DNA from: an uncultured virus (IMG/VR IMGVR_UViG_3300020048_000035)
Taxonomy: Duplodnaviria > Heunggongvirae > Uroviricota > Caudoviricetes
Length of the DNA stretch: 64,000 nucleotides
Strand: one strand, 5' to 3'
Virus record (IMG/VR): IMGVR_UViG_3300020048_000035
Made by a program: the position numbers and the translations under genes. This document shows, piece by piece, positions 1,254-18,430 of this stretch (position 1 is the stretch's first letter; every line of letters starts with the position of its first letter). A model generated the notes under the pieces. That model did not search any database and had not been told where the DNA came from. It saw only the letters and a list, made by a program, of their open reading frames with translations.

Positions 1254-1513
1254 GAATACCTCAACATAAGCATTATAGCATCTTCCTCGGATATTATACC
1301 ATCATCTACTTCTAATGTAAAAGTTTTATTTTCATGTACTCCTATGGTTAATGTCCATTTATCACCCTTTTTTCTATATATGTACTCTATGCGTGGTAAC
1401 CCACCATAATCAACTGACACTTTATCAATACATATGTTTGCGTCAGATCCTAAATTTTCTCTCACCCAATTCTCTACTTCATATTTCTTGTTTATATTAA
1501 GATTAAATTTCAT
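1250..1513 (-). CDS. family A small protein
   Basis: ends EEDAIMLMLRYS. Confidence 0.8.
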   Translation of the reverse strand: MKFNLNINKKYEVENWVRENLGSDANICIDKVSVDYGGLPRIEYIYRKKGDKWTLTIGVHENKTFTLEVDDGIISEEDAIMLMLRYS

Positions 1514-1908
1514 GACCACCTCAATGCCATTAGAGTATACAATGTGTTAGATATAGTATATTGCTCAAGAAAACTATCATTATCAATTGGTTTCCAAAGA
1601 GTAATATCCTGTTCTTCAATCCATCTGGCCACCTTAGGAGCTACATCTACCACGCAATAATCATTGGGTACAATATATTCGTGATCTGAAATAAGAGTAA
1701 AGTTTAATGCGTCAGGATATCTTACCCGCAAGGTAAAAATCTGCCCTGTTGGTCCAGTCATGGGTAGTACACCAACAAGTTGGCTGGCAATCATACTAGG
1801 CAAGGATTTTCGTAATATAGGCAATTTAATCTTAGAAAAACTTCCATACTTTGTTATCAGCTTGCGTAATGATACCCGCCTAGATAACCTTCTTTGATGG
1901 CTATTCAT
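1510..1908 (-). CDS. family A protein carrying a gp23 major-capsid (Gol-region) fragment
   Basis: LPILRKSLPSMIASQLVGVLPMTGPTGQIFTLRVRY; ends LMALRWS. Confidence 0.85.
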   Translation of the reverse strand: MNSHQRRLSRRVSLRKLITKYGSFSKIKLPILRKSLPSMIASQLVGVLPMTGPTGQIFTLRVRYPDALNFTLISDHEYIVPNDYCVVDVAPKVARWIEEQDITLWKPIDNDSFLEQYTISNTLYTLMALRWS

Positions 1909-2099
1909 TCTACAGAAGTCCACCTCAATAGAAAAAGGGTCAACAAAGGTTGCTCTTCTTCAGTTATATCAAGTATTATATATTTACGCCAATGGGGATC
2001 TGTAAACCACCAGCGTAAATTTTCTTTGCTGATGTTATCAGTTAGCCATTGAATCATTTCTAATTTTTTACTTTCATCACGAGGAACATTAATTACCAT
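1905..2099 (-). CDS. family A small protein
   Basis: ends TLFLLRWTSVE. Confidence 0.8.
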   Translation of the reverse strand: MVINVPRDESKKLEMIQWLTDNISKENLRWWFTDPHWRKYIILDITEEEQPLLTLFLLRWTSVE

Positions 2100-2296
2100 T
2101 ATGCCCACCTCAATGTAAAAAGCATAGCGTCTTGCTCTGATCCAAAGTGATAACACAGAGTATCATAACGGGTTATGAACATAGGATTCTCTTCACCACG
2201 AGGTGTCGATATAGTTCGTTTTTCAAAAGTAGGACAATTTTTCATTGCCCACGCAAAAGGTTCACTACCAGCAACGGAAGGCAATTTGACTATCAT
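2099..2296 (-). CDS. family A small protein
   Basis: ends EQDAMLFTLRWA. Confidence 0.85.
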   Translation of the reverse strand: MIVKLPSVAGSEPFAWAMKNCPTFEKRTISTPRGEENPMFITRYDTLCYHFGSEQDAMLFTLRWA

Positions 2297-2318
2297 TATG
2301 ACCACCTCAATGTAAAAA

Positions 2319-2591
2319 TCATGGCCAAAACACGAAGAAAAGTTGAGGATCATCGCTCCATGTCAATAGAAATGAATCAGCTTCAGCCTCAGACTGGAAT
2401 TCAACGTCATACATCATATAACAGTCATCTTCCCAAGTAGTCAGCTCCCAATTGATACTGATTTTAATATTAAAATACTCTTCCAATTGATCTATAATAA
2501 TTTGATTAAAATATGCCGTTGGCCAATTAGTGACCACTGACTGCGCAGCTTTGAATAGTACTTCAATTGATATATTACGCATAGCAGACAT
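2319..2591 (-). CDS. family A small protein with extended tail
   Basis: EAEADSFLLTWS then extra residues. Confidence 0.75.
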   Translation of the reverse strand: MSAMRNISIEVLFKAAQSVVTNWPTAYFNQIIIDQLEEYFNIKISINWELTTWEDDCYMMYDVEFQSEAEADSFLLTWSDDPQLFFVFWP

Positions 2592-2932
2592 TATGACCAT
2601 CTCAATAAAAAGAACTCTACATCTGCTTCACTGTGAAACATAATACGGTTACTGAATACAAAATAGCCATGTTTAAATGTTTCTTTACACCATGCTTCAA
2701 TCACATCTCTACCTGCTTCCTTAGCGGTATCAGAAAAATCTAGTTCTATCCAATGTTTTCTATCAGGATCTATCTCACATAGAACTTGCCAGTCAACCTC
2801 ATATTGAATATCTTGACTCAGGACGGTCAAAATCTCGGTTGCGCTATCAACTGTCCATCTAGCCGATAGCTTTCTTGATTTTGCTGTTATCTGTTGCTTT
2901 AATATTTCAATATTGTTATTAGAATTTGTCAT
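2591..2932 (-). CDS. family A protein carrying a second gp23-like capsid fragment
   Basis: IEILKQQITAKSRKLSARWT...EILTVLSQDIQYEVD; ends FFLLRWS. Confidence 0.85.
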   Translation of the reverse strand: MTNSNNNIEILKQQITAKSRKLSARWTVDSATEILTVLSQDIQYEVDWQVLCEIDPDRKHWIELDFSDTAKEAGRDVIEAWCKETFKHGYFVFSNRIMFHSEADVEFFLLRWS

Positions 2933-3213
2933 TATGTCGTCCACTTTAGTGACATTACTATATACAGCTCATTGGGTATAATATAACGATATCTTAATAT
3001 CGTGTACATCAATGATTCTGTTTGTGTCCATCCGCTGTGAGTTTTCTCAAGCCATCTGGCCACCTCTTCATCAACATCTACTTCAACATATCCAATTGGC
3101 ACTGTTGATCGTTTACCGTTTGGAGTTTTAATAGAAAATCTAAACTTTGGAAAAGTCTCTGCTCTGCCTTTATCTACTCCAGCTTGCCAAGTTATAGGGT
3201 GTGTAAGTTTCAT
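2932..3213 (-). CDS. family A small protein
   Basis: ends VMSLKWTT; C-half resembles 1510-1908. Confidence 0.8.
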   Translation of the reverse strand: MKLTHPITWQAGVDKGRAETFPKFRFSIKTPNGKRSTVPIGYVEVDVDEEVARWLEKTHSGWTQTESLMYTILRYRYIIPNELYIVMSLKWTT

Positions 3214-3452
3214 GACCATTTCAACATAAAAAATAATTGTGTTTCTTCATCTACATGCTCGTTTAATTCCATAGTAAAAGTTATGTTTTCTTTAGATATA
3301 TCAGGCGGCATATTGGTACAAAAATGCCATCCTTCTCCGCGAATACTAGATCCAGGAACACTTATCTTTGGTCCTATATTCTCCATGGTCCATTTAACAC
3401 AATCTATGGCACGATCACTATCGGTAAATGTTATCTTACTCATACTAATCAT
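3210..3452 (-). CDS. family A small protein
   Basis: ends FFMLKWS. Confidence 0.8.
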   Translation of the reverse strand: MISMSKITFTDSDRAIDCVKWTMENIGPKISVPGSSIRGEGWHFCTNMPPDISKENITFTMELNEHVDEETQLFFMLKWS

Positions 3453-3648
3453 GCCCCCACTTTATTCTAAATATTATAGCATCATACTCATTGGTAAACT
3501 CCAAATATGGTGTAAATGTTTTTCTAGGTAAACCAATTACTCCTTGCCCACTTAGCCAAGCGTGAAATTCTTCTATAGTACCAGGTGTGTGTTGAATGTA
3601 CCATGTGGTAGCATTAGCCCAATACGGTTCAATAGGTAGTGTAATCAT
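3445..3648 (-). CDS. family A small protein
   Basis: ends DAIIFRIKWGHD. Confidence 0.8.
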   Translation of the reverse strand: MITLPIEPYWANATTWYIQHTPGTIEEFHAWLSGQGVIGLPRKTFTPYLEFTNEYDAIIFRIKWGHD

Positions 3649-3860
3649 GAGTGTTTTAATAACCATAAGATAGATTCTGCTTCATCGTCAAATTTTAATT
3701 TTACCTGAGGCATATTATGTTCATCCATTTCCCAGTCTATTTCATAGTTACCAGGTAGTAATGATTTGAATAATTGAGACATGTCTGTTCGTGTGTGTTC
3801 ATCAAACGGTTCAAACGCATATGTTTGTGTTACTATATTCACTGCTTCAGTTACATTCAA
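3645..3860 (-). CDS. family A small protein
   Basis: ends ESILWLLKHS. Confidence 0.75.
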   Translation of the reverse strand: MNVTEAVNIVTQTYAFEPFDEHTRTDMSQLFKSLLPGNYEIDWEMDEHNMPQVKLKFDDEAESILWLLKHS

Positions 3861-4083
3861 GGTGACCCCACTTTAATCTAAACATCATGGCATTCTTTTC
3901 GTTTGTAAATTGCCATTTTATAGTTTCAAATTCTGGACCTCCGCGCCATCCATCACGAACAAAAGGTCCAAATGTATCACGGCACCAATAAAACTGTTTT
4001 ACATAACCAGAATGTGTTTTATATTCAACTACAACTTCATGCCGCCATCTCCTACGATCTACCCTGCGCTGATGACTATTCAC
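3847..4083 (-). CDS. family A small protein
   Basis: ends NAMMFRLKWGHLECN. Confidence 0.8.
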   Translation of the reverse strand: MNSHQRRVDRRRWRHEVVVEYKTHSGYVKQFYWCRDTFGPFVRDGWRGGPEFETIKWQFTNEKNAMMFRLKWGHLECN

Positions 4084-4355
4084 AGAAATTTCAACCTAAA
4101 CATGGTAGCTACTCTTTCATCTGCAATATCAACAAAGTATGACGTATAAGTTACTTGTTGTCCCTGTGATCCTGTATCATATATCACATGCTTAAACCAT
4201 TTCCACTCATCTCCGGTGTATATGCTGTTATCTAGATCACAGTTGACTGCAGGACCTACATTTTGTTCAAACCAAGATATCATTTGGCTTTTAATACTTT
4301 GTTTTTCTTTATGGCGCAATGGAAAACCCACTCGTTTCGTTATGTCAATTATCAT
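4080..4355 (-). CDS. family A small protein
   Basis: ends ATMFRLKFL. Confidence 0.8.
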   Translation of the reverse strand: MIIDITKRVGFPLRHKEKQSIKSQMISWFEQNVGPAVNCDLDNSIYTGDEWKWFKHVIYDTGSQGQQVTYTSYFVDIADERVATMFRLKFL

Positions 4356-4597
4356 AACCACCTCAATCTAAACATGGTAGCATATTCTTCACGAGCAAAG
4401 TACCATGTAGTCCAGCCAGTACCGCTACCACGACTACAAGTCCATGGATATTCTGCCGATACTTGATCACGGAACTCAGCTTTCGGTCCAAGCATGTTTA
4501 AGCACCAAGTCATCATAGAGTTTTCATAATCCGGTGATGGCCATTCGCCATAGGCTGATTTAAAAAACTGTGATGTCATAACTTCTGCTGCTATCAT
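4352..4597 (-). CDS. family A small protein
   Basis: ends ATMFRLRWL. Confidence 0.8.
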   Translation of the reverse strand: MIAAEVMTSQFFKSAYGEWPSPDYENSMMTWCLNMLGPKAEFRDQVSAEYPWTCSRGSGTGWTTWYFAREEYATMFRLRWL

Positions 4598-4863
4598 GAG
4601 TTCTGTAACAACCAAAATGTTTGTTCTTCATCGGACGTAAATTTCAATTGAAGTGGTACATGATATGATCCTCCGGGAGCTAAATTCACCTTTATTCCAG
4701 CAACTCCTGAAACATACCCCATCTTAGGAGAATCAATTCTGCGATTCCAGTATTCCTCAAATGTGAGGAAACAATCTTCGCTACTAATATCAGTACTATA
4801 GGTGTCAAACATTTCTCTAATTACGAGATACTGATTTAAATCACCAATCCACATTGTTGTCAT
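4594..4863 (-). CDS. family A small protein (divergent)
   Basis: ends EEQTFWLLQNS. Confidence 0.7.
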   Translation of the reverse strand: MTTMWIGDLNQYLVIREMFDTYSTDISSEDCFLTFEEYWNRRIDSPKMGYVSGVAGIKVNLAPGGSYHVPLQLKFTSDEEQTFWLLQNS

Positions 4864-5117
4864 TTTGATAATAACTCTAATAATTTTTTAGGTGTAATAA
4901 TATCTGATACTTCTTTGTTGCCAATTGGTACTAACTGACTTTCTTCTATAATCCAATCTGACATTACTGTGCCTTTTTTTATAGACAAAGTAATAAACTG
5001 TCTAAGACTTCCTATAGCAGGAAACTTTCTTCCCGTTTTAGACCAACCGCCATACCCAGGTGTACCAGTTCTATACAGCCCAGATGTTTTGCTACGAATT
5101 CTATAAAAAATTTCCAT
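4860..5117 (-). CDS. family B small protein
   Basis: Y..GTP...W...GRKF..I..LR.FIT motif. Confidence 0.75.
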   Translation of the reverse strand: MEIFYRIRSKTSGLYRTGTPGYGGWSKTGRKFPAIGSLRQFITLSIKKGTVMSDWIIEESQLVPIGNKEVSDIITPKKLLELLSK

Positions 5118-5127
5118 TAACTATATA

Positions 5128-5376
5128 TCATGCCCAATGTAATGCGAAAAATGTTGCTGCCGCACGGTCCCTAAAGTAAAACGCAGCACGGTACCGGCGT
5201 CCATCAGAAACATAATGCGTCTCCAACCTACCATGCCATGGTCGTTCTTTACTACCTTTGACAACACTAGGTCCAAAGTTAGCAATACACCATTTACGAA
5301 CGGCAGAATATTCAGTATATCCATAACCCGCAAATAATTTAGTATTAACTCGTTGATAAATTAATTCTCTTGTCAT
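5128..5376 (-). CDS. family A small protein
   Basis: ends AATFFALHWA; close paralog of 7095-7340. Confidence 0.8.
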   Translation of the reverse strand: MTRELIYQRVNTKLFAGYGYTEYSAVRKWCIANFGPSVVKGSKERPWHGRLETHYVSDGRRYRAAFYFRDRAAATFFALHWA

Positions 5377-5410
5377 AATGGTTTCATTTTAACATTACTT
5401 AACTGTAAGG

Positions 5411-5641
5411 TCAAGAATTTCTTCGCTTTTTCCATGTGTAATCTTCACCGCTTGGCAGCTTGCCATTCTCTACACTATCGCAGCCCATACGGCCTACTTG
5501 GTTAGGATTCTCACCTACCATAGCAACATATGCCATACCTAGGGTACGCATATGATTGGCACGAGTAAGTGCTTCAACCATTTCTAAATACTCTTCACTC
5601 TTTGCGGCTCCATCTTCTGAAGTCCAATACACTTTATACAT
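5411..5641 (-). CDS. hypothetical phage protein
   Basis: ORF in operon context. Confidence 0.7.
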   Translation of the reverse strand: MYKVYWTSEDGAAKSEEYLEMVEALTRANHMRTLGMAYVAMVGENPNQVGRMGCDSVENGKLPSGEDYTWKKRRNS

Positions 5642-5647
5642 TTCTTC

Positions 5648-5953
5648 TCATTTATACAATTTCAGTTGCCGAACAATTTCGGGCCACTCCTTTCTAGGAG
5701 CTAATACAACTGCTACTTCTTCGCCGTTCAGCGCACTTTCTGATACTACAACAACTTTATCTAACTGTTTAAGTTGTTCAAATTCTTCGTCAGTAACTTT
5801 ACAAGTTACCTTTTTAAAACTATACAGCATCCAGTCTTGAAAGTCAACATCATCCATATGCCACTTAAGATAAGCTATTAAGCTGGCATGACTTGCGCTG
5901 TTGATAGCAAATCCAACTGGAATACTATCACGGATAGCAATGTACATTTTCAT
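5648..5953 (-). CDS. peptidyl-tRNA hydrolase PTH2-like protein
   Basis: KMYIAIR...G.A...HAS...W...SFKKVTCKV...P. Confidence 0.7.
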   Translation of the reverse strand: MKMYIAIRDSIPVGFAINSASHASLIAYLKWHMDDVDFQDWMLYSFKKVTCKVTDEEFEQLKQLDKVVVVSESALNGEEVAVVLAPRKEWPEIVRQLKLYK

Positions 5954-6201
5954 ATTGACTTACTCTTTAGTTTAATCCACATGAATTCTTCCAGATCAAC
6001 TTTTTCTGTTAATGTACCAACATGCCTATTCTTCACAAACCTGATATTACTCCCACTCTGCATCCATATACGCTCTGAGCCATGTATCACACGACTTTTA
6101 CCGTGAGACCACCCAACATCGCTAGCTTTATAAGTCACATACCTAGGCATCTTTAACATTTTAGCGGTACTTTCGTGTAATTCACAATACACTTGTTCCA
6201 T
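5950..6201 (-). CDS. hypothetical phage protein
   Basis: coupled ORF. Confidence 0.65.
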   Translation of the reverse strand: MEQVYCELHESTAKMLKMPRYVTYKASDVGWSHGKSRVIHGSERIWMQSGSNIRFVKNRHVGTLTEKVDLEEFMWIKLKSKSI

Positions 6202-6202
6202 A

Positions 6203-6403
6203 TTATTCCTTTGGTTTAATTCTAAGACGCCAGGTAATTACTTGACCATCCATGGTTGTACAATCATCTATATACCAATCAGGACGTTCTACATCCATCC
6301 ACTCAAACTGTGTTATACCACTACCAGTCCAATACACTTGAATGATGGCACCGTCTGCCCATGCGTGAATTAATTCAGCATATTTGTGTTTAATCATGCC
6401 CAT
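6203..6403 (-). CDS. hypothetical phage protein
   Basis: HK.AELI.AWADGA.IQ...P.W....RIKP; resembles 27748-27948. Confidence 0.7.
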   Translation of the reverse strand: MGMIKHKYAELIHAWADGAIIQVYWTGSGITQFEWMDVERPDWYIDDCTTMDGQVITWRLRIKPKE

Positions 6404-6639
6404 TTTAACATAAAAAATATATAATCCTTTTCGTCCCTAAATCGTAAAGTAGAGTAGGACTGACTCCATCGTGCCCATGCATCAGTAATTGGGTTCGCGG
6501 GTTCAAATTGTTCGGTACACCATTCAAGCATTGCCTGTACTCTATCTTGATTGACTGGCCTTGCGGGAAATGGCTCCCACATTTCGTACTCATACCATTT
6601 AACACGATGAAATTGATACTTAGGTTTAGTGTTATTCAT
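6394..6639 (-). CDS. family A small protein
   Basis: ends EKDYIFFMLKWA. Confidence 0.85.
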   Translation of the reverse strand: MNNTKPKYQFHRVKWYEYEMWEPFPARPVNQDRVQAMLEWCTEQFEPANPITDAWARWSQSYSTLRFRDEKDYIFFMLKWA

Positions 6640-6907
6640 GCCCACTCCACTTTAGGGCAAAGAATACAGCATCTTCTTCTCGCTTAAAATAAAAACAATT
6701 AGACGAATAGCCATAAGTTTCACATTCAAAATGTTCACCACACCAGCTCCATCGTATATACCATGTATTATTAGTATCATCCATGGGTGATTTTATTCCA
6801 TAGGGATATTTCTCTATCATTTCTTGCTCCATTCGCATCTCGGCCATAACCCTGTCGTGATCTATCTGCCACAATTCGTGTTGATTTTGGTATTCTTGGT
6901 CTGTCAT
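6632..6907 (-). CDS. family A small protein
   Basis: ends EEDAVFFALKWSGHE. Confidence 0.85.
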   Translation of the reverse strand: MTDQEYQNQHELWQIDHDRVMAEMRMEQEMIEKYPYGIKSPMDDTNNTWYIRWSWCGEHFECETYGYSSNCFYFKREEDAVFFALKWSGHE

Positions 6908-7098
6908 TTCCATCTCAATATAAACATTGTAGCATCTTTTTCATGATTAAAGTAAACTTTTCCTGCGCCAATTGTCCAGCCATTCTCACGACCCGATTGC
7001 CCCCAAGTTTCAACACACCAGGCAAAACAATCACGCCATTTAACACTACCGTTTACGGGTGGCAACGGTACAGAATACCATTCGTCTATTTTTTTCAT
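6904..7098 (-). CDS. family A small protein
   Basis: ends EKDATMFILRWK. Confidence 0.85.
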   Translation of the reverse strand: MKKIDEWYSVPLPPVNGSVKWRDCFAWCVETWGQSGRENGWTIGAGKVYFNHEKDATMFILRWK

Positions 7099-7340
7099 GA
7101 CCACCTCAGGGAAAATAATGTGGCACAAGCAGGATCTCGGAAACAAAAGCGTGATGCCCGCACAAATTCTGAGCCATCGTGATACCAGTCTTTGCGACCA
7201 TACCAAGGATTTTGGTAACCAAGATCCTTGGCTTTCTTGCTGTTACTAGCGCCAAAGTTTTCCTTACACCATTTTCGCATGGTTAAGTGTTCTTTTTGAT
7301 TGTACAGTCTAGGTACAATCACTTTAGTATAAATTATCAT
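7095..7340 (-). CDS. family A small protein
   Basis: ends ATLFSLRWS. Confidence 0.85.
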   Translation of the reverse strand: MIIYTKVIVPRLYNQKEHLTMRKWCKENFGASNSKKAKDLGYQNPWYGRKDWYHDGSEFVRASRFCFRDPACATLFSLRWS

Positions 7341-7525
7341 GACCACCTCAAAGTAAACATTGTAGCATCTTCTTCTCTAGTAAAGTATATACCATGTCCG
7401 CCGCGAGAGTAATTGCCATAGCCCTCGTGCGTTTCAAGCCATGAAATCATTTCATTTGTTAACCAAGGTACAGAAACATAAGTTTCTTCTGCGCCGCCAA
7501 AACTAATAAAATTAATATTTTTCAT
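7337..7525 (-). CDS. family A small protein
   Basis: ends EEDATMFTLRWS. Confidence 0.85.
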   Translation of the reverse strand: MKNINFISFGGAEETYVSVPWLTNEMISWLETHEGYGNYSRGGHGIYFTREEDATMFTLRWS

Positions 7526-7782
7526 TTCATCCACCTCAACGCAAATAATATAGCATCTTGCTCGTGATCAAATGAAAATTTATATACAGCATGGTCGCGT
7601 CCTCTGCCATCATATATACATTGCCATACACCATGTTGCCCAAAGGTTAGCCTTTCTACAATACTAAATCTTATTCCAAACTGTTCTTGACACCATGAGC
7701 ACATTCTTTCAATATCAACATTGGATTTGGATTGTATTAAAACTTCATGTGTCAATCTGGGTTTTAGGACAACTGTAATCAT
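7522..7782 (-). CDS. family A small protein
   Basis: ends EQDAILFALRWMK. Confidence 0.85.
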   Translation of the reverse strand: MITVVLKPRLTHEVLIQSKSNVDIERMCSWCQEQFGIRFSIVERLTFGQHGVWQCIYDGRGRDHAVYKFSFDHEQDAILFALRWMK

Positions 7783-8022
7783 GCCCATCTCAACGCAAAC
7801 ATCACAGCATCAGCACGATTTTTAAATGNNNNNNNNNNCGGGATTCCATCCATCATATTTCCACTGTTTTGATTCTAAATTCTCGCGGCACCATAGTACC
7901 CTTGGATCCATTTTTTCTGGATCATCCGTAATATATTTGCGCCATGTGGGCAATGCCAACTCAAAGCACACAAGGGGTAATCGTATTACACATGGCCAAC
8001 GATCTCGTTCTCGTAAACTCAT
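7779..8022 (-). CDS. family A small protein (spans N gap)
   Basis: after the gap reads FKNRADAVMFALRWA*. Confidence 0.7.
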
Positions 8023-8237
8023 GCCCACCTCAACATAAAAAATATAGCATCTTCTTTGGTTTTAAATCTCCAAACTAATCCATGGCTAACACAAGACTCT
8101 TCTCCAAATGTATCCACACACCATGCGTCTATATTGCCGCTTCCTACCGCAATTAAACTGCCACCAGGTCCGCAGTACTTGACACGATGCGGCCAGACAC
8201 TACCTGGATATGAACTAAGTGAATATTCAAGTATCAT
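8019..8237 (-). CDS. family A small protein
   Basis: ends KEDAIFFMLRWA. Confidence 0.85.
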   Translation of the reverse strand: MILEYSLSSYPGSVWPHRVKYCGPGGSLIAVGSGNIDAWCVDTFGEESCVSHGLVWRFKTKEDAIFFMLRWA

Positions 8238-8449
8238 GACCACCTCAATAAAAACCAAGTTGCTTGTTCGTCAGTTTCAAATTTAAGTCCACCAGTTACA
8301 ACTACAGCTCCATATTTCAATAGCATATTGTCTCTGTTAACCAAAAATAAATCATGATTGTTATTAGTTTCATTCCAAACAGCATTAATAAATTTATTCC
8401 ACCAATGATTATGTAGCCCCACGCTGTCAGTGGCAGATATAAATTTCAC
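8234..8449 (-). CDS. family A small protein
   Basis: ends QATWFLLRWS. Confidence 0.85.
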   Translation of the reverse strand: MKFISATDSVGLHNHWWNKFINAVWNETNNNHDLFLVNRDNMLLKYGAVVVTGGLKFETDEQATWFLLRWS

Positions 8450-8619
8450 GACTTATGACCCCATCGTAATAAAAACATAGTATACTCTAAATCATTCATA
8501 AAGTAAAATACAGGATACCAACAATCCCATCTTTTAATTGGAGATAGATTCTCATTGCACCAAGTAACCATGAGGTTCCATTCGTCGGCAGTACAACTAT
8601 TAAAACTTTTTTCTATCAT
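8446..8619 (-). CDS. family A small protein
   Basis: ends YTMFLLRWGHKS. Confidence 0.75.
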   Translation of the reverse strand: MIEKSFNSCTADEWNLMVTWCNENLSPIKRWDCWYPVFYFMNDLEYTMFLLRWGHKS

Positions 8620-8815: not shown

Positions 8816-9036
8816 ACCCACCTCAACGCAAACATGACGGCATCTTCTTCAAAAAGAAATCCAAAATTACAGCCAGATAAGTATACCCAGCGAGTACATG
8901 TTCCTTCTGTCAGACCACCATTAGGACCAAAAGTATTACTAGCCCATGTCATAACTTCGTCAAAATCAGTATGGCTGGAAAAAATATCTGCTTGTACGAT
9001 AGTCCATTCGCCTTGTGCTGTACTAATTTTATTCAT
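8812..9036 (-). CDS. family A small protein
   Basis: ends EEDAVMFALRWV. Confidence 0.85.
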   Translation of the reverse strand: MNKISTAQGEWTIVQADIFSSHTDFDEVMTWASNTFGPNGGLTEGTCTRWVYLSGCNFGFLFEEDAVMFALRWV

Positions 9037-9305
9037 TATGACCACCTCAATAAAAATAAGGTCAACGCTTGTTCAGAAGCAAACTCAAGCGCAAACCAAT
9101 CGTCAATAATAGTAATGCCATATTCTTCCCACCACCATTGTTTCATTACACTCATATGCGGCCCTGTTGGCGGAGTACCTTTTTTCTTCAACACAGCAAA
9201 GTGTGCGTTTTGAAATGCCCTCTGAATAGTATTAGTTACAATAATCACACCAGAAGTGGGATAAGGCCAATTATACATAGTGCCTACCGGTATAGTAAGA
9301 GTCAT
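9036..9305 (-). CDS. family A small protein
   Basis: ends TLFLLRWS. Confidence 0.85.
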   Translation of the reverse strand: MTLTIPVGTMYNWPYPTSGVIIVTNTIQRAFQNAHFAVLKKKGTPPTGPHMSVMKQWWWEEYGITIIDDWFALEFASEQALTLFLLRWS

Positions 9306-9493
9306 GCCCATTTCAACCTATACATTGTAACATCAGCAGTATTTTTAAAGGCCGGTTTACCAGAGCTAATATAACCCAGTTTTCCAGGGTTAATATATCG
9401 ACAATCATCAGTTCCAAATGTGCTAAGTGCCCATAAGACTCTTAAGGGCCAATCCAATTCAACTGGAAACTCAATTATAGTCCAATCATCCAT
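9302..9493 (-). CDS. family A small protein
   Basis: ends DVTMYRLKWA. Confidence 0.8.
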   Translation of the reverse strand: MDDWTIIEFPVELDWPLRVLWALSTFGTDDCRYINPGKLGYISSGKPAFKNTADVTMYRLKWA

Positions 9494-9496
9494 TAT

Positions 9497-9691
9497 TCAA
9501 TTCCATCTCAATACAAACATTAACATACTGTTTTTATCAGTAAACTCAATGTAAGCAATATGTCCTGTGGCATCCAATCCAGCAAAGTACCATGTGCCAT
9601 CACTTAAAGTCTGGTGACACCATTGTACTACATGACTATAGGTATGTTTAGTAATTTCTAATTTTACAGTGAATATTTTCATATCATCCAT
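9497..9691 (-). CDS. family A small protein
   Basis: ends LMFVLRWN. Confidence 0.8.
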   Translation of the reverse strand: MDDMKIFTVKLEITKHTYSHVVQWCHQTLSDGTWYFAGLDATGHIAYIEFTDKNSMLMFVLRWN

Positions 9692-9693
9692 TG

Positions 9694-9867
9694 CTAACCC
9701 CACTTCAAAGCAAACATTATAGCATCTTTTTCATGCTTAAACATAAATCCTTCAAAATTATGATCCCAATCCATTAAAGGTATGTTGCTTCTACACCACT
9801 GACACTCTTGCGTACTAACTTTTCCACCAGAGATGGGCACCAGAGTCCATTGCTTAATGATCATCAT
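9694..9867 (-). CDS. family A small protein (57 aa, below track cutoff)
   Basis: MMIIKQW...QWCRSN...FKHEKDAIMFALKWG*. Confidence 0.8.
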   Translation of the reverse strand: MMIIKQWTLVPISGGKVSTQECQWCRSNIPLMDWDHNFEGFMFKHEKDAIMFALKWG

Positions 9868-10130
9868 TAATTAACTCTTAGCATTAGCATAGTTAACATT
9901 GATTCCGACTTAACATAAATGTAATACGGTGTATATTCATCTGATTTACTCTTATTGCCAAATTTAATTGTCCATGAATTACCCTTAGTATACCAGTTTT
10001 CACCGTACATTTTACGCATAGCCTCTTCATATGGATTTATTATACGAGGCTCCCAACGAGACCATCTCATAGCATGAGTATAGCCTTCTTTGTACATACT
10101 ATATCTTTTATCTAGTTTAATTATTTTCAT
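9867..10130 (-). CDS. family A-related protein, tandem duplicate
   Basis: MKIIKLDKRYSMYKEGY...ESMLTMLMLRVN. Confidence 0.8.
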   Translation of the reverse strand: MKIIKLDKRYSMYKEGYTHAMRWSRWEPRIINPYEEAMRKMYGENWYTKGNSWTIKFGNKSKSDEYTPYYIYVKSESMLTMLMLRVN

Positions 10131-10516
10131 GATTTAACTCTAAGCATTAACATGGTTAACATTGATTCATCCTTAAGATAAATGTAGTATGGAGTGACAC
10201 CTGCTTTACTTCTAGAAGATCCATATGCGGCTCGCCATGGATTGCCAGTGGAATATCTAGAACCACCGTACATTTCCTGCATGGCTTGTTCATAAGGAAC
10301 TACCTCACGACAATAACCTTCATTCCATCTAAGGGCGTGTTTATACCCTTCGCGGTACATGCTAAATCGTCCATTTAATTTAATTATTTTCATTTTGTTC
10401 TTGGTATTACGGATTACATAAAGTTTAGGTGACGGCTGTCTTTGTCGTATCTTGAATATTACTTCACTATCTTTCACTATCTGGTTTATTAAATGTGCTT
10501 GGCGATCTTTCATCAT
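10127..10516 (-). CDS. family A-related protein, tandem duplicate (alternative start 10393)
   Basis: MKIIKLNGRFSMYREGY...ESMLTMLMLRVKS. Confidence 0.75.
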   Translation of the reverse strand: MMKDRQAHLINQIVKDSEVIFKIRQRQPSPKLYVIRNTKNKMKIIKLNGRFSMYREGYKHALRWNEGYCREVVPYEQAMQEMYGGSRYSTGNPWRAAYGSSRSKAGVTPYYIYLKDESMLTMLMLRVKS

Positions 10517-10710
10517 ACCCATCTCAATAGGTAAAATGTTAAATCCTGTTCGTCACGAAAGCATACTAGATCGTTCAATCGCCACCACCGAGCACCTTTT
10601 AACCAAGCATTGCCATACTCCATGGCTGTGGCTGGACCAAACTGTTCTTCACACCATTCAAGACACTCCCTCCACCCGCGATCTTCAGGTAATTTTGCGG
10701 TATACATCAT
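10513..10710 (-). CDS. family A small protein
   Basis: ends EQDLTFYLLRWV. Confidence 0.85.
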   Translation of the reverse strand: MMYTAKLPEDRGWRECLEWCEEQFGPATAMEYGNAWLKGARWWRLNDLVCFRDEQDLTFYLLRWV

Positions 10711-10898
10711 ACCCACTTTAATGAAAACATTATTGCTGCCTGTTCATCTGTGAATAGATAACGTAAATATCCTTGATGAGTGAGTTCATATTTCCAGTCT
10801 TGTAAATATTTCAATTGTAAATGATCTGTTATCCAAATTCCCATCTTAGTCCTATCCATACGATCTTTGCTGTGCAGCACCATAACCTCGTATTTCAT
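10707..10898 (-). CDS. family A small protein
   Basis: ends AAIMFSLKWV. Confidence 0.85.
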   Translation of the reverse strand: MKYEVMVLHSKDRMDRTKMGIWITDHLQLKYLQDWKYELTHQGYLRYLFTDEQAAIMFSLKWV

Positions 10899-11290
10899 GT
10901 CCACTTTAAAGTAATCATTATAGCATCTTCATCCGAATTTGTCGCAACAAATACACGATCTTCACCGCCTATTCCGGTTAGGTGCCAACGCTTATCCCAT
11001 TGACTACGCACGACTCGTTCTAATCGCCAGACACAGTTTTCACCTAGCGATCTTTGTGGCCAGAAATACGGAAGAGCATCACGATGTGGAACCCAGTCTA
11101 ATCCGGCATCCCACAAAAATCTGTTAGGATCTACTTCAATAACATGCTTAAAGTTCTCAAACATGTTGGTAATATCATGTGCCCTCCAGTTGACATTGGT
11201 ATTGTACCAAGCCTCCCATTCACGCTCTGTTCGGCTTTTACCTGTGCGCCATGTTATCCAACGATCTTTTATCTCATCAAGCAATTTCAT
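10895..11290 (-). CDS. family A protein with long N-terminal part
   Basis: ends DEDAIMITLKWT. Confidence 0.85.
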   Translation of the reverse strand: MKLLDEIKDRWITWRTGKSRTEREWEAWYNTNVNWRAHDITNMFENFKHVIEVDPNRFLWDAGLDWVPHRDALPYFWPQRSLGENCVWRLERVVRSQWDKRWHLTGIGGEDRVFVATNSDEDAIMITLKWT

Positions 11291-11469
11291 TATGACCACT
11301 TCAATACAAATAATGTTTCTTGTTCTGGCACTTTAAATGAAATATTTCCATTTTCAATAGTTCCACCGTACGAGTGGATACACGCATCAACGCCTTCTAT
11401 GGTACATGTGCCCTTTTGATTGAACACATGCCACATTATCTTATATTGATAATCATTGAATTTTAGCAT
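11290..11469 (-). CDS. family A small protein
   Basis: ends TLFVLKWS. Confidence 0.8.
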   Translation of the reverse strand: MLKFNDYQYKIMWHVFNQKGTCTIEGVDACIHSYGGTIENGNISFKVPEQETLFVLKWS

Positions 11470-11693
11470 TACGACCACTTCAATAAAAATAAAGTAAAAT
11501 CCTGTTCACTGTTAAACTCTAACATAACACCTTCTCCCTCACGAATTACATATTCTGCGTGATATGGCGTTAATGCTTCGTTTACACTATCNNNNNNNNN
11601 NGTCCATTGGTTTGGTATTGATGTTAGAAAGTTTTGAAAACATGGTGGAGAGTCTTTTATGTAATGCCTTCCTAAAAATACGCTATATGTCAT
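11469..11693 (-). CDS. family A small protein (spans N gap)
   Basis: ends EQDFTLFLLKWS. Confidence 0.75.
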   Translation of the reverse strand: MTYSVFLGRHYIKDSPPCFQNFLTSIPNQWXXXXDSVNEALTPYHAEYVIREGEGVMLEFNSEQDFTLFLLKWS

Positions 11694-11914
11694 GACCACC
11701 TCAACAAAAATAAAGTCAAATCCTCAGGCCAATCAAATTGAAATTTTACACCATCACCGTTAGGCAGTTTATCTATATACCAATTAAACCCTTGTTCAGA
11801 ACACCATCCTTGCATTTCTTTTACACGAGCTACCCAATCCATAAATTCTCTTGCAGAAAAAGATGTACTATCAGTTGAAGTTGGTTTAAGAAAAATATAT
11901 TCTGGTTTCATCAT
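11690..11914 (-). CDS. family A small protein
   Basis: ends EDLTLFLLRWS. Confidence 0.85.
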   Translation of the reverse strand: MMKPEYIFLKPTSTDSTSFSAREFMDWVARVKEMQGWCSEQGFNWYIDKLPNGDGVKFQFDWPEDLTLFLLRWS

Positions 11915-12093
11915 GCCCACCTCAGAGCAAATAGCACAGCATCTCGCTTAAAACGAATGCGCCATGTACCGTTAATCCGACCCCATGATATACCATGGGC
12001 ATCTATGTTTTCTCTACACCACGGAGAGATTATTGTCCACTCATCATAAGCAGGTTGAGCTTTAATTTTATAACGGAAATGTCGTATAGCCAT
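11911..12093 (-). CDS. family A small protein
   Basis: ends DAVLFALRWA. Confidence 0.85.
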   Translation of the reverse strand: MAIRHFRYKIKAQPAYDEWTIISPWCRENIDAHGISWGRINGTWRIRFKRDAVLFALRWA

Positions 12094-12094
12094 T

Positions 12095-12376
12095 TTAGAC
12101 CTTATTTTGATGTTTAAGAAGTGCCATTGTATGGCTTGAAGTAAAGATTTCAGTTACAGGATAGCCATCAGTAACAGCATGTTGCTCAATTGTCCAGTCA
12201 TCAATCTCAAGTTTACCCGGATGCTTTAACATCCTAGTCATAAATGATCTAATCTCTGCTATAGACTTGAATTTCCTAGCATTAGTAACGCCATACCATG
12301 TGGTCCATTCCTTGGGTGTACCTTCAAGATATCTATCTCTGGGCATCCTGATAACGTAAAATGTTGTAATTGCCAT
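12095..12376 (-). CDS. family B small protein
   Basis: ARKFKSIAEIRSF...SHTMALLK. Confidence 0.8.
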   Translation of the reverse strand: MAITTFYVIRMPRDRYLEGTPKEWTTWYGVTNARKFKSIAEIRSFMTRMLKHPGKLEIDDWTIEQHAVTDGYPVTEIFTSSHTMALLKHQNKV

Positions 12377-12424
12377 AATTTTGTCCTATTTTAATAGTAA
12401 TTGTAATTGAGGACGAATTAATTG

Positions 12425-12637
12425 TCAACTGAATTTTAATAAAAATAAGGTAGCAGCAGTCTCGGAGGGAAATTCAACGGTATAATTCCACTTAACTGTT
12501 TGAATTATTTCATATTCTTTAATTTTAATATTATATTCCTGTTCCATAGTTGCGAGAAAATTACTTTCATCAGGTTCATTAATCATTTTCCACGCATTAA
12601 ACATGGTAAATCCCGATACTTCAACCGTATAAGCCAT
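12425..12637 (-). CDS. family A small protein (F-type)
   Basis: ends AATLFLLKFS. Confidence 0.85.
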   Translation of the reverse strand: MAYTVEVSGFTMFNAWKMINEPDESNFLATMEQEYNIKIKEYEIIQTVKWNYTVEFPSETAATLFLLKFS

Positions 12638-12840
12638 TAAGCAAACCTTAATAAAAACATTATAGCATCAGCCTCAGATTTAAAATCAATGATAAATCCC
12701 GAATCCCTCATCGCATAGTCTATACCAAATATATTATATGCTAATTGAAGCCGCTTAAAATCTATGGGTAATTCTTCACCAGGCTTTAATAATGCCTTAG
12801 CAGCTATACCATATGAACGATTAGTTACATTAACTTTCAT
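12637..12840 (-). CDS. family A small protein (F-type)
   Basis: ends EADAIMFLLRFA. Confidence 0.85.
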   Translation of the reverse strand: MKVNVTNRSYGIAAKALLKPGEELPIDFKRLQLAYNIFGIDYAMRDSGFIIDFKSEADAIMFLLRFA

Positions 12841-12841
12841 A

Positions 12842-13057
12842 TTAATTAAACTTTAAGGCAAACATACTGGCTACTGGATGACGCTTAAACTTAAATTTAG
12901 CGACCAAGGCAGTATAGTCAAGAGACTGAGCAGGAGCCCAATCCCATTGCCAGTCGGTGTACTGAATCCCAGCATTATCTTCGCACCATTCCATCATAGC
13001 CGTTAGTTTAGGTACATAATTACCCATGTCTGGAAACGTAATTACAACTGAACTCAT
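12842..13057 (-). CDS. family A small protein (F-type)
   Basis: ends ASMFALKFN. Confidence 0.85.
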   Translation of the reverse strand: MSSVVITFPDMGNYVPKLTAMMEWCEDNAGIQYTDWQWDWAPAQSLDYTALVAKFKFKRHPVASMFALKFN

Positions 13058-13251
13058 TACGAAAATCTCAGTAAAAATAGGGTTGCATCAGCATCATATG
13101 AAAATTCAAGAGTAAACCCATGAACGTGGTTATGTACACTGGTTATATTATAGGCAGCAAGGAATTCTGACTTACTAGGATTACCATGCTCAGGGTCATT
13201 CAGTGATTCGATGGCCAGCATAAATGTCTCATGGGATACACTAACTTTCAT
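13057..13251 (-). CDS. family A small protein (F-type)
   Basis: ends DADATLFLLRFS. Confidence 0.85.
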   Translation of the reverse strand: MKVSVSHETFMLAIESLNDPEHGNPSKSEFLAAYNITSVHNHVHGFTLEFSYDADATLFLLRFS

Positions 13252-13466
13252 TACGAAAACCTTAAGGAAAACATAATTGCCACAGCCTCATCTGAAAATT
13301 CAAACCATATTCTAGTTAAATCATCAGTGTGAAAATCCCAATACCATGCGCCGAATTCCGCATTTTCCTTACACCATGTTACCATATGTTCAATCGGAGG
13401 ATCAAGCGAATCTTGTTTACTCAACAAGAAATCAGTCATGGTAACTGTAACTCTATGAGTTTTCAT
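13251..13466 (-). CDS. family A small protein (F-type)
   Basis: ends AIMFSLRFS. Confidence 0.85.
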   Translation of the reverse strand: MKTHRVTVTMTDFLLSKQDSLDPPIEHMVTWCKENAEFGAWYWDFHTDDLTRIWFEFSDEAVAIMFSLRFS

Positions 13467-13693
13467 GAAAACCTCAATAAGAATAAGGTAGCATCAGCCT
13501 CAGATGAAAATTCAATATAATCAGATCCCGCAAGATTCTTACAATTCCATTTAGCCAATGAGTCATTAAGACGGTCATCTCCCAGCTGTATTAGATTATA
13601 TGCTTCAAGAAAGTTAATCCACCATGCCATATATCTTTCCTTCCAACCATCTCGGCCTTCTCTATCTTTAAATACGGAAATTTTATATGTCAT
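13463..13693 (-). CDS. family A small protein (F-type)
   Basis: ends EADATLFLLRFS. Confidence 0.85.
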   Translation of the reverse strand: MTYKISVFKDREGRDGWKERYMAWWINFLEAYNLIQLGDDRLNDSLAKWNCKNLAGSDYIEFSSEADATLFLLRFS

Positions 13694-13694
13694 T

Positions 13695-13958
13695 TTAACT
13701 AAACCTCAATAAAAATAAAGTCATATCCTCTTCATGCTTAAATTTAATATGACTGCCAAAGTATACCGCTGAATATGGTCGCAATCCTGCATCTATATTT
13801 TGATGCGTACCTCCTGCAATGTGTCTTACCGTGGGTACAGTATGAAGAAAATTATTCCAAATTTGATTCCTATAAAGAGTCTGCGAGTCGTAAGACCTTA
13901 CATCAAGTTTATATGGATATATTAATTCATATGTTTTTAATGATAAAGCATTAGGCAT
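13695..13958 (-). CDS. family A small protein (F-type)
   Basis: ends EEDMTLFLLRFS. Confidence 0.85.
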   Translation of the reverse strand: MPNALSLKTYELIYPYKLDVRSYDSQTLYRNQIWNNFLHTVPTVRHIAGGTHQNIDAGLRPYSAVYFGSHIKFKHEEDMTLFLLRFS

Positions 13959-14215
13959 TACGACCACCTAAGTAAAAATAAGGTTGCGTCAGCATTATTC
14001 TCAAACCTCAATTTAAAAGCAAGATCACCATGGGTTCTTTTATTCATATACATGTCAAGAATAGGGCGTATATCAATACCCGCCCGTTTCATGGCCTGCT
14101 CTCGTTCTGGAAATTCACGGGGTAAGGTGTCATTAAATTTGGTCCACCATTCATTAAACACTAACACGCCATCACGATTTCTATGTGGTTTCCGTATGTC
14201 TAATAATATTGCCAT
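13958..14215 (-). CDS. family A small protein
   Basis: ends NADATLFLLRWS. Confidence 0.85.
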   Translation of the reverse strand: MAILLDIRKPHRNRDGVLVFNEWWTKFNDTLPREFPEREQAMKRAGIDIRPILDMYMNKRTHGDLAFKLRFENNADATLFLLRWS

Positions 14216-14216
14216 G

Positions 14217-14474
14217 TTAACTAAACCTCAATAAAAAGAATGTTCTATCACTTTCAGTCTTAAATCTAAAATACTCAAACAACATTATAGCATTATATTC
14301 GCTTTTAAGAGTATAATTCAGCATGGAATCTGGTCTATACCATGCCACATTGTCCGGCATACTATTAAGGAATTTATCAAATATCCGAGTAGTCTCCTTA
14401 TAGTTGGAATCACCTTGATAGTCAAATGCTTTTAATGTATGGGGATATTCTTGTTCCAATATAGGATCTCTCAT
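14217..14474 (-). CDS. family A small protein (F-type)
   Basis: ends ESDRTFFLLRFS. Confidence 0.85.
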   Translation of the reverse strand: MRDPILEQEYPHTLKAFDYQGDSNYKETTRIFDKFLNSMPDNVAWYRPDSMLNYTLKSEYNAIMLFEYFRFKTESDRTFFLLRFS

Positions 14475-14719
14475 TACGAAAACCTCAATAAAAATAAGGT
14501 GGCATCTTCATCCTGCTCAAACGAAACATACCCTCTGTTAACTCCATATGTAGCACCCCATTTAGCAAGTTCATTTGCTAACGTAGGAGTATTAGGAATA
14601 AAGTCACCACCTAGATAACGATAAAAATTCAATAATACAGGATTATACACCATATAACTACCGAGATTTGGATCCTTCGATATTGGGCCTCGAACATTTA
14701 AAGGTATTTTAGTGGCCAT
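14474..14719 (-). CDS. family A small protein (F-type)
   Basis: ends DEDATLFLLRFS. Confidence 0.85.
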   Translation of the reverse strand: MATKIPLNVRGPISKDPNLGSYMVYNPVLLNFYRYLGGDFIPNTPTLANELAKWGATYGVNRGYVSFEQDEDATLFLLRFS

Positions 14720-14720
14720 A

Positions 14721-14960
14721 TTAACTAAATTTCAATAAAAAGAACGTGGCACCAGCCTCATCTACAAACTTAATTTTATAAGTTTTAACCCAGATATCGT
14801 CCTCAACAATAGGTATAATAGCAACAATACTGTGTTCATTCCTGAGAAATTGTCTAAATTCATGACTTAAAGTACTATATCCTTCATTAGGATGTTCTTT
14901 ATAATAAAGATTCCTAGCTAAATCAAGTGATTTTATCGGCACTATACAATCTACAGTCAT
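14721..14960 (-). CDS. family A small protein (F-type)
   Basis: ends GATFFLLKFS. Confidence 0.85.
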   Translation of the reverse strand: MTVDCIVPIKSLDLARNLYYKEHPNEGYSTLSHEFRQFLRNEHSIVAIIPIVEDDIWVKTYKIKFVDEAGATFFLLKFS

Positions 14961-15205
14961 TATGAAAACCTCAATAAAAACATTAATAAATCTGACTCGT
15001 GCTTAAACCTAAGTCCACTAGTAGTCCTAACAGCATTATACTGTATATCCAGAATACGGTCAACCGCTTCCGTTTTATCGTAAGTAAGTCCCTCGTATGG
15101 TACATTATCAAGGAAATTGCGCCAATACCGATTATACTGCATCACATCTCGTTGATTAATAGAATAGGGATATTCTACAAATAACTTTAAGGATATATCT
15201 TTCAT
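14960..15205 (-). CDS. family A small protein (F-type)
   Basis: ends ESDLLMFLLRFS. Confidence 0.85.
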   Translation of the reverse strand: MKDISLKLFVEYPYSINQRDVMQYNRYWRNFLDNVPYEGLTYDKTEAVDRILDIQYNAVRTTSGLRFKHESDLLMFLLRFS

Positions 15206-15206
15206 A

Positions 15207-15464
15207 TTAAGCGTATTTTAATAAAAATGCGGTTCTTTCAATATCAGACTCAAACATTAAATTTAAGTTTTCACGTTTATAGTCAAAATCCTTAGCATGT
15301 ACATCGGGATATGTGGCATTATATTTCTTTTTTAATGCCGTACGAACATATGATCCATTAGAATACATTCCGTTACCCCTGCGATCACGGTGTCGTTTAA
15401 TAAAGTTTTTAACATATGACTTCCTCTCATGGGTTTCATCATAAATGGGTAATATATATTTCAT
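15207..15464 (-). CDS. family A small protein
   Basis: ends ERTAFLLKYA. Confidence 0.8.
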   Translation of the reverse strand: MKYILPIYDETHERKSYVKNFIKRHRDRRGNGMYSNGSYVRTALKKKYNATYPDVHAKDFDYKRENLNLMFESDIERTAFLLKYA

Positions 15465-15466
15465 AA

Positions 15467-15691
15467 TTAAGCGAATTTTAATAAAAATAAAGTACAATCG
15501 GTTTCGGAGTCAAATGTAACAGGCCAATATTGTTGAAACGTAGTACCAAGATCATTAATTGTTAATCCATATGCTGTTTTCAGATCACGTTTCCAATCTA
15601 CAATATGATCCCATTTAGGATCATGTGGCCGCAAAAACGGAATACTTGCCTTATTAATAATGTCATAATGAATTGTAGTGGTAAATGTCAT
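15467..15691 (-). CDS. family A small protein (F-type)
   Basis: ends ETDCTLFLLKFA. Confidence 0.85.
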   Translation of the reverse strand: MTFTTTIHYDIINKASIPFLRPHDPKWDHIVDWKRDLKTAYGLTINDLGTTFQQYWPVTFDSETDCTLFLLKFA

Positions 15692-15692
15692 A

Positions 15693-15944
15693 TTAACTAA
15701 ACCTCAATAAAAAGAATGTACGATCCTGTTCTTTGGCAAACTCCAAATAATGTAATCCAACATGCGGGCTGGCTTGATTTTTATATGTACAATTAAATTT
15801 ATTCACAAGAATTCTTTTAGTGAAATCATTAAACGCATACCCCCTGTCTGGATCTAAATTCTGCCCAAGAAAACTCTGCATATATGATGCTAAACCATAA
15901 CTTTTGTATTCTTCACTGAACGTAAAAACTGGTAATTTATGCAT
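15693..15944 (-). CDS. family A small protein (F-type)
   Basis: ends EQDRTFFLLRFS. Confidence 0.85.
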   Translation of the reverse strand: MHKLPVFTFSEEYKSYGLASYMQSFLGQNLDPDRGYAFNDFTKRILVNKFNCTYKNQASPHVGLHYLEFAKEQDRTFFLLRFS

Positions 15945-16195
15945 TATGAAAACCTCAATAAAAATAAAGTCCTATCACTGGCACTATAAAAAGTAATAGA
16001 GTCAGACTTTCCATCCCACACAGCTCCGTATTCTAGACATTTAGCAATTAATCGCTGAGCAATAGCTTTATCAGCATAATGTACCCCGTATGGAAATTCA
16101 GTCACACTTTTATAAAAATTCATCCACGCAGGATGTACATGACTCCAATCCGGATCTGGCGGGATTCTCCAATTCTTAAGCTCCATGCGTATCAT
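15944..16195 (-). CDS. family A small protein (F-type)
   Basis: ends ASDRTLFLLRFS. Confidence 0.85.
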   Translation of the reverse strand: MIRMELKNWRIPPDPDWSHVHPAWMNFYKSVTEFPYGVHYADKAIAQRLIAKCLEYGAVWDGKSDSITFYSASDRTLFLLRFS

Positions 16196-17433: not shown

Positions 17434-17462
17434 ATTGTAAGTCTTATAGAATTGTTTGTCAA
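17434..17462 (-). promoter_or_regulatory. sigma70-type promoter heading the leftward array
   Basis: TTGACA-N17-TACAAT on the minus strand. Confidence 0.7.
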
Positions 17463-18428: not shown

Positions 18429-18430
18429 CC

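Follow-up and report, generated by a model that had tools for sequence, protein, structure and literature searches.

The first 16 kb of a 64,000-nucleotide (nt) stretch of DNA from the uncultured virus IMGVR_UViG_3300020048_000035 (IMG/VR; Caudoviricetes), here called the window, hold a minus-strand polycistronic array of small genes whose 3′ ends double as a translation signal for the gene that follows. Between positions 1005 and 16195 about 62 genes encoding proteins of 57–131 residues lie head-to-tail, some 55 of them from one unnamed phage family. The tail F-x-L-[R/K]-[W/F]-x-stop closes 54 of 66 tiled genes, a count that includes three genes upstream and one downstream of the array, and 53 of 65 gene ends listed by hand. 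It is absent from 12 tiled genes, three of which lie upstream of 16195 and one of which is a family gene masked by an N gap; such gaps fall at three places in the array. The first-pass annotation had placed a gene-junction repeat at 1510–16195. The repeat is real, but the array continues to 1005 and the tail-less genes interrupt its regularity. The window is part of a large uncultured freshwater phage whose genes include two copies of ClpP as well as ClpX, ClpS, Hsp20, ribosomal protein S21 and homing endonucleases. A related record of 333 kb carries a T4-type gp23 capsid protein, and the metagenome runs that match the window are aquatic or from lakes.

Two dialects of the tail divide the array. 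A W-dialect block (L-R-W-S/A/V) spans 1005–12093 on the minus strand, with non-family genes interspersed at about 4860–6403, while an F-dialect block (L-R-F-S; TTTTCRTAATG / TTTAGTTAATATG) spans 12425–16195 on the same strand. The dialects are kept as separate blocks in four sequences, and the position of the F block 5′ to the W block recurs in the related contigs L037, L039 and L042. Three minus-strand sites each match the sigma-70 promoter consensus at 11 of 12 positions, and are promoter-like by this match only. One (16226–16254) lies just upstream of the first family gene, another (17434–17462) precedes three related non-family genes (16192–17074) leading into the array, and an internal site (12400–12428) sits at a break in coupling. 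These non-family genes belong to a second small paralog family with an SHTM-x-LL ending, which has four minus-strand copies (16192–17074 and 12095–12376), each set downstream of a promoter-like site; no relative of the 16772–17074 protein was found in IMG/VR. Another non-family gene within the array (5648–5953, minus strand) has a match to PTH2-like peptidyl-tRNA hydrolases (E = 4e-5) and is absent from L037 and L039.

The type junction of the W dialect lies at 8234–8254 on the minus strand. Here the L-R-W-S codons spell a GAGGT Shine-Dalgarno (SD) sequence, which is followed after a 4-nt spacer by an ATGA overlap of start and stop. A second minus-strand junction at 9036–9058, the 3′ end of cassette 9036–9311, has a TAATG overlap and a 7-nt spacer. 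The junctions cited in the first-pass annotation are present, with an exact TTTTTATTGAGGTGGTCAT at 8236–8254 and 9038–9056 and the forms TTTTC(A/G)TAATG / TTTAGTTAA at 12.6–16 kb. The junction consensus has 25 matches at up to three mismatches against 0.24 expected by chance, and 24 of these are on the minus strand within 1916–15964. The uniform geometry proposed for these junctions describes only some of them. An exact GAGGT is found in 21 of 54 family junctions, with AAGTGG-, AAATGG- or GAGATG-like sequence in the remainder. The proposed spacer of about 4 nt, counted from the T of GAGGT to the start, is 4 nt in 20 junctions but 7 nt in 15, and six junctions have 9 nt and three have 10 nt. 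Start and stop overlap in 38 of 54 (ATGA in 24, TAATG or TGATG in 14), while the start lies 1–3 nt past the stop in 10 and none was found in 4. With the SD inside the upstream gene, 38 overlaps and ten starts within 3 nt, this is the geometry of translational coupling, for which an SD inside the upstream gene and an ATGA or TAATG overlap is the textbook arrangement. What sets the array apart from ordinary coupling is a repeat common to dozens of genes that is also a point of rearrangement, neither of which normally accompanies it.

Codon choice at the junction departs strongly from usage in gene bodies. The tail leucine is TTG in 30 of 52 cases, compared with 16% for the bodies of array genes and 11% for 26 core genes, and the tail arginine is AGG in 24 of 32, compared with 13% and 7% respectively (p ≤ 2.5e-9 for the junction bias). 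Pairing with the 16S tail, for which we assumed a generic motif, is −5.0 kcal/mol at the junctions against −2.0 kcal/mol for synonymous recodings, and none of 50 recodings pairs as strongly. Lysine replaces arginine at 19 of 53 ends, which keeps the chemistry and weakens the SD. SD sites are present in 18 of 24 early genes and 12 of 26 core genes, so the phage does use them. Across 22 other loci from which seed-matching junctions had been removed, AGG occurs in 203 of 262 tails versus 129 of 1251 codons in bodies, and GAGG is found in 158 of 282 junctions with a coupled ATG versus 17 of 63 without one (p = 4e-5); this sample is biased towards the junction pattern, since 20 of the 22 loci were recruited with it. 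A single gene illustrates the same relationship. The gene ending at 12425 closes with TTA AAA TTC, which contains no SD, before a 49-nt gap with the promoter-like site, whereas its copy in L042 is coupled to the next gene and reads CTG AGG TTT. The codon bias, the stop/start overlaps and the anti-SD pairing uphold the proposal that each gene carries its neighbour's translation signal. The 3′ end of these genes is doubly constrained, as the terminal helix of a folded domain and as the SD and overlapping start of the next gene. Judged from sequence, the DNA spelling of the tail follows coupling and the array genes form a translational chain.

An 8-codon mini-open reading frame (mini-ORF) encoding MIFTLRWS (2296–2322, minus strand) reduces the junction to its essentials, its start overlapping the stop of gene 2319–2590 and its stop overlapping the start of gene 2099–2296. 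It is probably the scar of a deleted cassette, kept as a junction-only translation relay. No other junction-only mini-ORF with an overlapping ATG was found in 30 other loci scanned. The phage also encodes its own ribosomal protein S21 (61534–61755, minus strand), adjoining ClpX, ClpS and Hsp20. As bS21 contacts the anti-SD region, the phage protein could bear on SD use.

The array belongs to a widespread class. One exact 21-mer recovers 36 IMG/VR loci, some overlapping on one contig, and most of these contain runs of 5 to about 69 such genes; the family profile has 10–23 matches in each of five large records searched. The longest run, on a contig that includes both L013 and L007, packs about 69 genes with the tail into 19 kb; almost all of them share one 21-nt end, and near-duplicate cassettes lie far apart. 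No match was found in cultured-phage records by blastn of 6904–14800 or tblastn of one member. For comparison of gene order we used the related contigs L037 and L039–L043 from a protein search, counting L038 once with the identical L037 and leaving out L044–L045, whose match covers 12 residues only. The window (65 gene groups) has 31 groups in common with L037 (55 groups) and 17 with L039 (52 groups), in changed order in both, and novel cassettes make up about half of each array. Shared genes are 72.5–99.2% identical at the DNA level. Cassette 9036–9311 has eight copies with five different upstream and seven different downstream neighbours. Several pairings (L017/L026, L022/L034, L009/L017, L009/L026 and L008/L020/L006) are identical sequences and contain no breakpoints.

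Breakpoints between related phages cluster at the junctions, as the first-pass annotation had anticipated. Ends of homology blocks lie within 25 nt of the junction L codon in 43 of 69 de-duplicated cases versus 18% expected, and ends of contig joints in 22 of 32 versus 19% expected. The latter derive from 16 joints, namely 15 of 38 and one more from the X6 comparison. Loose contig ends were left out of the count, since a match of 30 nt may stem from another paralog. Alignment of 179 junctions places the switch more finely. Pairs that share only the upstream gene are 93% identical over L-R-W and fall to 48% at the next base, compared with 80% when both neighbours are shared, while pairs that share only the downstream gene reach 86% identity at position +11. 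In individual alignments, where a gene has a new downstream neighbour its last residue and stop differ too. This places the crossovers between the SD codons and the ATG. The differences among related phages are of whole cassettes, and ancestry switches inside the 9–20 bases that run from the L-R-W codons to the next ATG. Exact matches of at least 12 nt are found in 110 of 1431 junction pairs but 2 of 1326 body pairs, with a longest junction match of 27 nt.

Individual events comprise whole-cassette deletions, insertions, duplications and translocations among related contigs (all minus strand). The cassette at 2293–2589, a gene with its mini-ORF, is absent in X6 and X11 (two studies), where the joint lies within 11 shared bases, and present in X1 and X2. 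X2 and X6 both lack a gene of a tandem paralog pair (9870–10134), the joint falling in 8 shared bases where the gene ends. The same two comparisons skip a pair of cassettes at 10513–10898, the letters between not being known, and the first of the pair (10707–10898) is absent in L037 and L042 through a crossover in or just past shared L-K-W codons. In X6 record 22 the junction at 1510–1523 flanks both sides of about 240 extra bases, an inserted cassette with its junction duplicated. The cassette at 14703–14984 is 98.9% identical to L037 from junction to junction beneath a different upstream gene, which, given the 72.5–99.2% range of shared genes, points to a recent single-cassette exchange. At 13731–14254 the C-terminal codons, which are further upstream, contain the crossover. 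Some joints are found again in separate studies and collections.

The outcome is integron-like and the mechanism is not. Integrons combine the integrase IntI, an attI site and arrays of attC-bearing cassettes. The window array resembles them as a long series of short cassettes that have no promoters of their own, undergo gain, loss and reordering and are transcribed from an upstream promoter; the promoter-less cassettes, the promoter-like sites upstream (16254, 12428 and 17462, by consensus only) and the strain variation are all seen. It differs in lacking an attC hairpin, a core site and a non-coding spacer, in having cassettes that are paralogs of one another, and in the failure to find an integrase. 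Genes overlap without a spacer, junction DNA folds no better than its shuffles (mean z +0.19, n = 52), and the core motifs GTTRRRY and RYYYAAC occur in 2 and 3 of 54 junctions respectively. The remark in the first-pass annotation that no integrase is visible holds for the 106 ORFs of the window searched against Pfam. Tyrosine recombinases (PF00589), serine recombinases (PF00239) and annealing proteins of ERF or Rad52 type were likewise missing from five related records, which are mostly partial, only one being more than 90% complete (92%). A RecA/UvsX-like gene is present in two of these five, and in G001 it lies beside a gene that we take to be gp32-like. The array is not an integron.

We consider it likely that the short homology used by general recombination or slippage is supplied by the junction and by the C-terminal codons that resemble one another, and that in-register products are expressed immediately. 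The array would then serve as a library, its short paralogous genes read from a few promoters, in which the shared junction bases and similar upstream C-terminal codons supply homology for general recombination. The agent could be a phage UvsX/gp32-type system or slipped replication, acting within one genome or between co-infecting strains, and mini-circles may provide a further route. Any in-register crossover would leave the upstream protein complete and the downstream gene with an SD and a start, so recombinants would be expressed at once and survive, and a site-specific recombinase would not be needed. The separation of the F and W dialects into blocks and the MIFTLRWS relay fit this model.

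Several observations weigh against short homology as the driver. A new neighbour was seen for 3 of 6 tail-less genes and for 34 of 52 genes with the tail (p = 0.66, an underpowered comparison). With tail-less genes moving as often, the data locate crossovers in the junction without proving that the shared bases are their cause. Two X6 events, an insertion at 5118–5128 and a change at 5954–6212, fall at boundaries of non-family genes. About a third of ends are off-junction (26 of 69 block ends and 10 of 32 joint ends lie outside the junction zone), and the contig joints counted draw on 15 of 38. Junction identity is short, with a median longest exact match of 7 nt and matches of 20 nt or more in 6 of 1431 pairs, which is below what UvsX needs for efficient exchange. 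A per-group test at +9 to +14 did not separate upstream from downstream inheritance (0.71 versus 0.75, p = 0.29). The pair L014/L016 offers no support, its breaks lying mostly far from the junctions found by regular expression; among its 21 blocks one start, at a synteny break, lies at +15, and short internal repeats end at junctions. The p-values overstate independence, since BLAST blocks extend into shared motifs and strains share ancestry, and every comparison rests on assembled contigs.

The short homology and the similar rate at which non-family genes change neighbour are also what would be expected if the junction reflects translational coupling and paralogy only, with illegitimate recombination striking at random and selection keeping events at gene ends, a position that only the junction can occupy where genes overlap. 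This scheme is called an attractive general explanation of phage mosaicism in the available portion of PMC3029335. Random breaks sit poorly with joints in exact register that have 8–11 shared bases and leave one junction copy, with the duplicated junction around the X6 insertion and with dialects that stay in blocks. In addition, the leucine codon upstream of the SD is itself biased (TTA in 21 of 25 versus 38–40%), and AGG persists in 20 of 32 uncoupled genes. Both fit homogenisation by exchange, while U-richness or missed starts could also explain them. On balance we regard random breakage with selection as unlikely, though less so than the following two explanations. A sharp switch of ancestry at the W codon and a 9-mer identical across many phages would suit an unrecognised site-specific recombinase acting on a core site, TTGAGGTGG, in a true integron analogue. 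That core tolerates AAA/AAG/AGA and TTT/TAT variants, it is associated with no hairpin or inverted repeat (z = +0.19; GTTRRRY in 2 of 54), some crossovers lie upstream of it in C-terminal codons (13731–14254) and no tyrosine or serine recombinase was found in the five related records, of which one is 92% complete, making such an enzyme improbable. Assembly mis-joins at the repeated junction are more improbable still. Metagenomic contigs provide all the evidence and N gaps interrupt the window array at three places, but the longest exact junction match is only 27 nt, the same joints appear in separate studies and collections, and novel cassettes rather than re-joins alone account for about half of each array.

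Among known systems, gene shuffling at the array junctions is closest to the promoter-early stem-loop (PeSL) modular shuffling of T4-type phages (PMC2839356, PMC4122927). As described in the available portions of these papers, a short repeated expression signal flanks small non-essential genes, recombination deletes, inserts and moves genes that are still expressed, no dedicated recombinase has been identified, and the authors too draw a comparison with integrons. In the window array, as with PeSLs, the repeated element lies at gene boundaries where strain indels and exchanges map. PeSLs are reported there as intergenic elements with a terminator, a sigma-70 promoter and an SD, whereas the window repeat is about 15–30 nt, lies in the coding 3′ end and carries only an SD, stop and start. 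It has no hairpin and no promoter for each gene; most of the cassettes are paralogs from a single family, with a few promoters in common. Mini-circles have been shown for PeSLs in the same accounts, while the window array is known from assembled contigs alone. On the best reading, short homology guides a PeSL-like shuffling in which the repeat is part of the coding 3′ end. Adjoining the array and transcribed away from it, the plus-strand region at 19500–38500 is itself PeSL-like, an early-type region of many small genes with a repeated block of sigma-70 promoter and GGAG SD (families D2, D8, D10, D11 and D13). Given these promoter-plus-SD repeats, the phage appears to use both designs side by side.

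A precedent for a shared coding end is found in mycobacteriophage Island3, where, in the portion of PMC3029335 available, the adjacent genes 67 and 68 have the C-terminal 18 residues and about 50 bp in common, where recombination adds or removes a gene. This is, as described, a single event at one gene pair, while in arrays of the window type a shared end is the organising rule for 5 to about 69 genes in many phages and doubles as the SD of the next gene. To the extent of that description, the window array generalises the Island3 case. Searches of the open-access literature found no description of this array, and the part of PMC13573597 that was available does not mention it.

The array proteins constitute a genuine phage family that has no name. 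A profile built from 29 members in the window matches 4688 clusters (50% identity) at E ≤ 0.001, and AlphaFold2 with 119 sequences predicts a compact β-α-β-β-α domain with a confidence (predicted local distance difference test) of 89, its last helix being the tail. No Pfam, PHROG or PADLOC family describes this scaffold, and a Foldseek search of the PDB gave no match at E ≤ 0.001. Matches in BFVD are almost all uncultured Caudovirales proteins and the ESM Atlas neighbours are unnamed viral clusters at 0.89. In a fold comparison that took in the small α-β domains RRM, ACT, KH and DCoH, similarity was generic, with best Z scores of 6.0 (root-mean-square deviation 2.6, 61 residues aligned) and 5.7 (3.1, 59 aligned) tied among unrelated families.

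Two array genes carry pieces of the major capsid protein. The minus-strand gene at 1510–1908 combines the family scaffold with a fragment (Pfam Gp23, E = 5.5e-11) that aligns to residues 96–131 of T4 gp23 and 56–104 of a related-phage capsid, and the gene at 2591–2932 (minus strand), kept in L037, carries a second fragment aligning to residues 157–204 of the related capsid. Capsid pieces occur in 6 of 506 distinct tail-bearing ORFs, four of which have the first segment, and in one of 150 profile hits. The first segment is fused to two different scaffold subtypes, the Gp23 domain is found in 24 of 25 homologs of 1510–1908, and of the named structural proteins only the capsid turned up in a scan of 54 long array proteins (four hits). 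Separately, an N-S-H-Q-R-R start peptide is common to the otherwise different family genes 1510–1908 and 3847–4083 (minus strand), which suggests N-terminal module swapping as well.

The fragment in 1510–1908 lies in or beside the Gol region of T4 gp23, the limits of which we take to be about residues 94–122. Gol is described, in the sections available, as a stretch of 29 residues, within the first quarter of gp23, that binds EF-Tu and triggers Lit (PMC3014915), and capsid proteins as common defence triggers (PMC9712102). In T4 the segment lies within the capsid protein, while in the window it has been cut out of the capsid gene and joined to a small scaffold. As the most conserved part of gp23, a Gol-region fragment is also the easiest to detect. 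By analogy, a decoy or interference role for the fusions would be a lead rather than a result. More tentatively, the proteins may be small β-α-β-β-α scaffolds with variable surfaces used in conflict with the host or rival phages. The fuller form of this idea is a recombinase-free, protein-encoded diversity library, in which the constant C-terminal helix would be both expression signal and recombination site, and the variable N-terminal parts would display captured peptides, including the phage's own capsid segments, which would serve as decoys or inhibitors of host immunity that senses capsids, or would poison the assembly of rival capsids. The captured segments include the Gol-equivalent region, on at least two scaffold subtypes and in several phages. 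We consider the idea conceivable but doubtful.

Elsewhere in the window other features stand beside the array. A cluster of sigma-70 sites with 11–12 of 12 matches includes four on the minus strand (19026–19547) and one on the plus strand (19562–19590), and the cumulative GC skew has its minimum at 18–19 kb. A 13-bp unit of the ATTTCGCG type forms tandem clusters of up to about 10 copies in intergenic gaps (18250–18450, 27030–27140, 36560–36730 and 37370–37480), possibly protein-binding or origin sites. Two NUMOD3-bearing endonuclease-like genes in reverse orientation are each followed by the same 130-nt promoter block (25451–25918, 24670–25461, 33589–34278), and an exact 46-nt duplicate lies at 25551 and 25873. 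Three larger plus-strand ORFs (40084, the 41093 region and 42647) begin with M-R-x-x-E-F-like sequences that we take to resemble T4 capsid-targeting sequences, and two of them are paralogs without a Pfam match. Genes for a CHASE2 adenylate cyclase, FecR, a curlin-repeat protein, CsgG and CsgF (50103–58966) form a curli-like secretion and signalling module within a phage.

The finding is real, widespread and dynamic. Whether phage mosaics with breakpoints at gene ends arise through short-homology recombination or through random events and selection is an old open question, to which the array contributes natural strains with dozens of events in register and a design that allows recoding to separate DNA identity from SD strength and from protein sequence. 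A very large family of phage proteins, as yet unnamed, is also marked out as an accessory library with fast turnover, for which the captured capsid fragments are a first handle on function.

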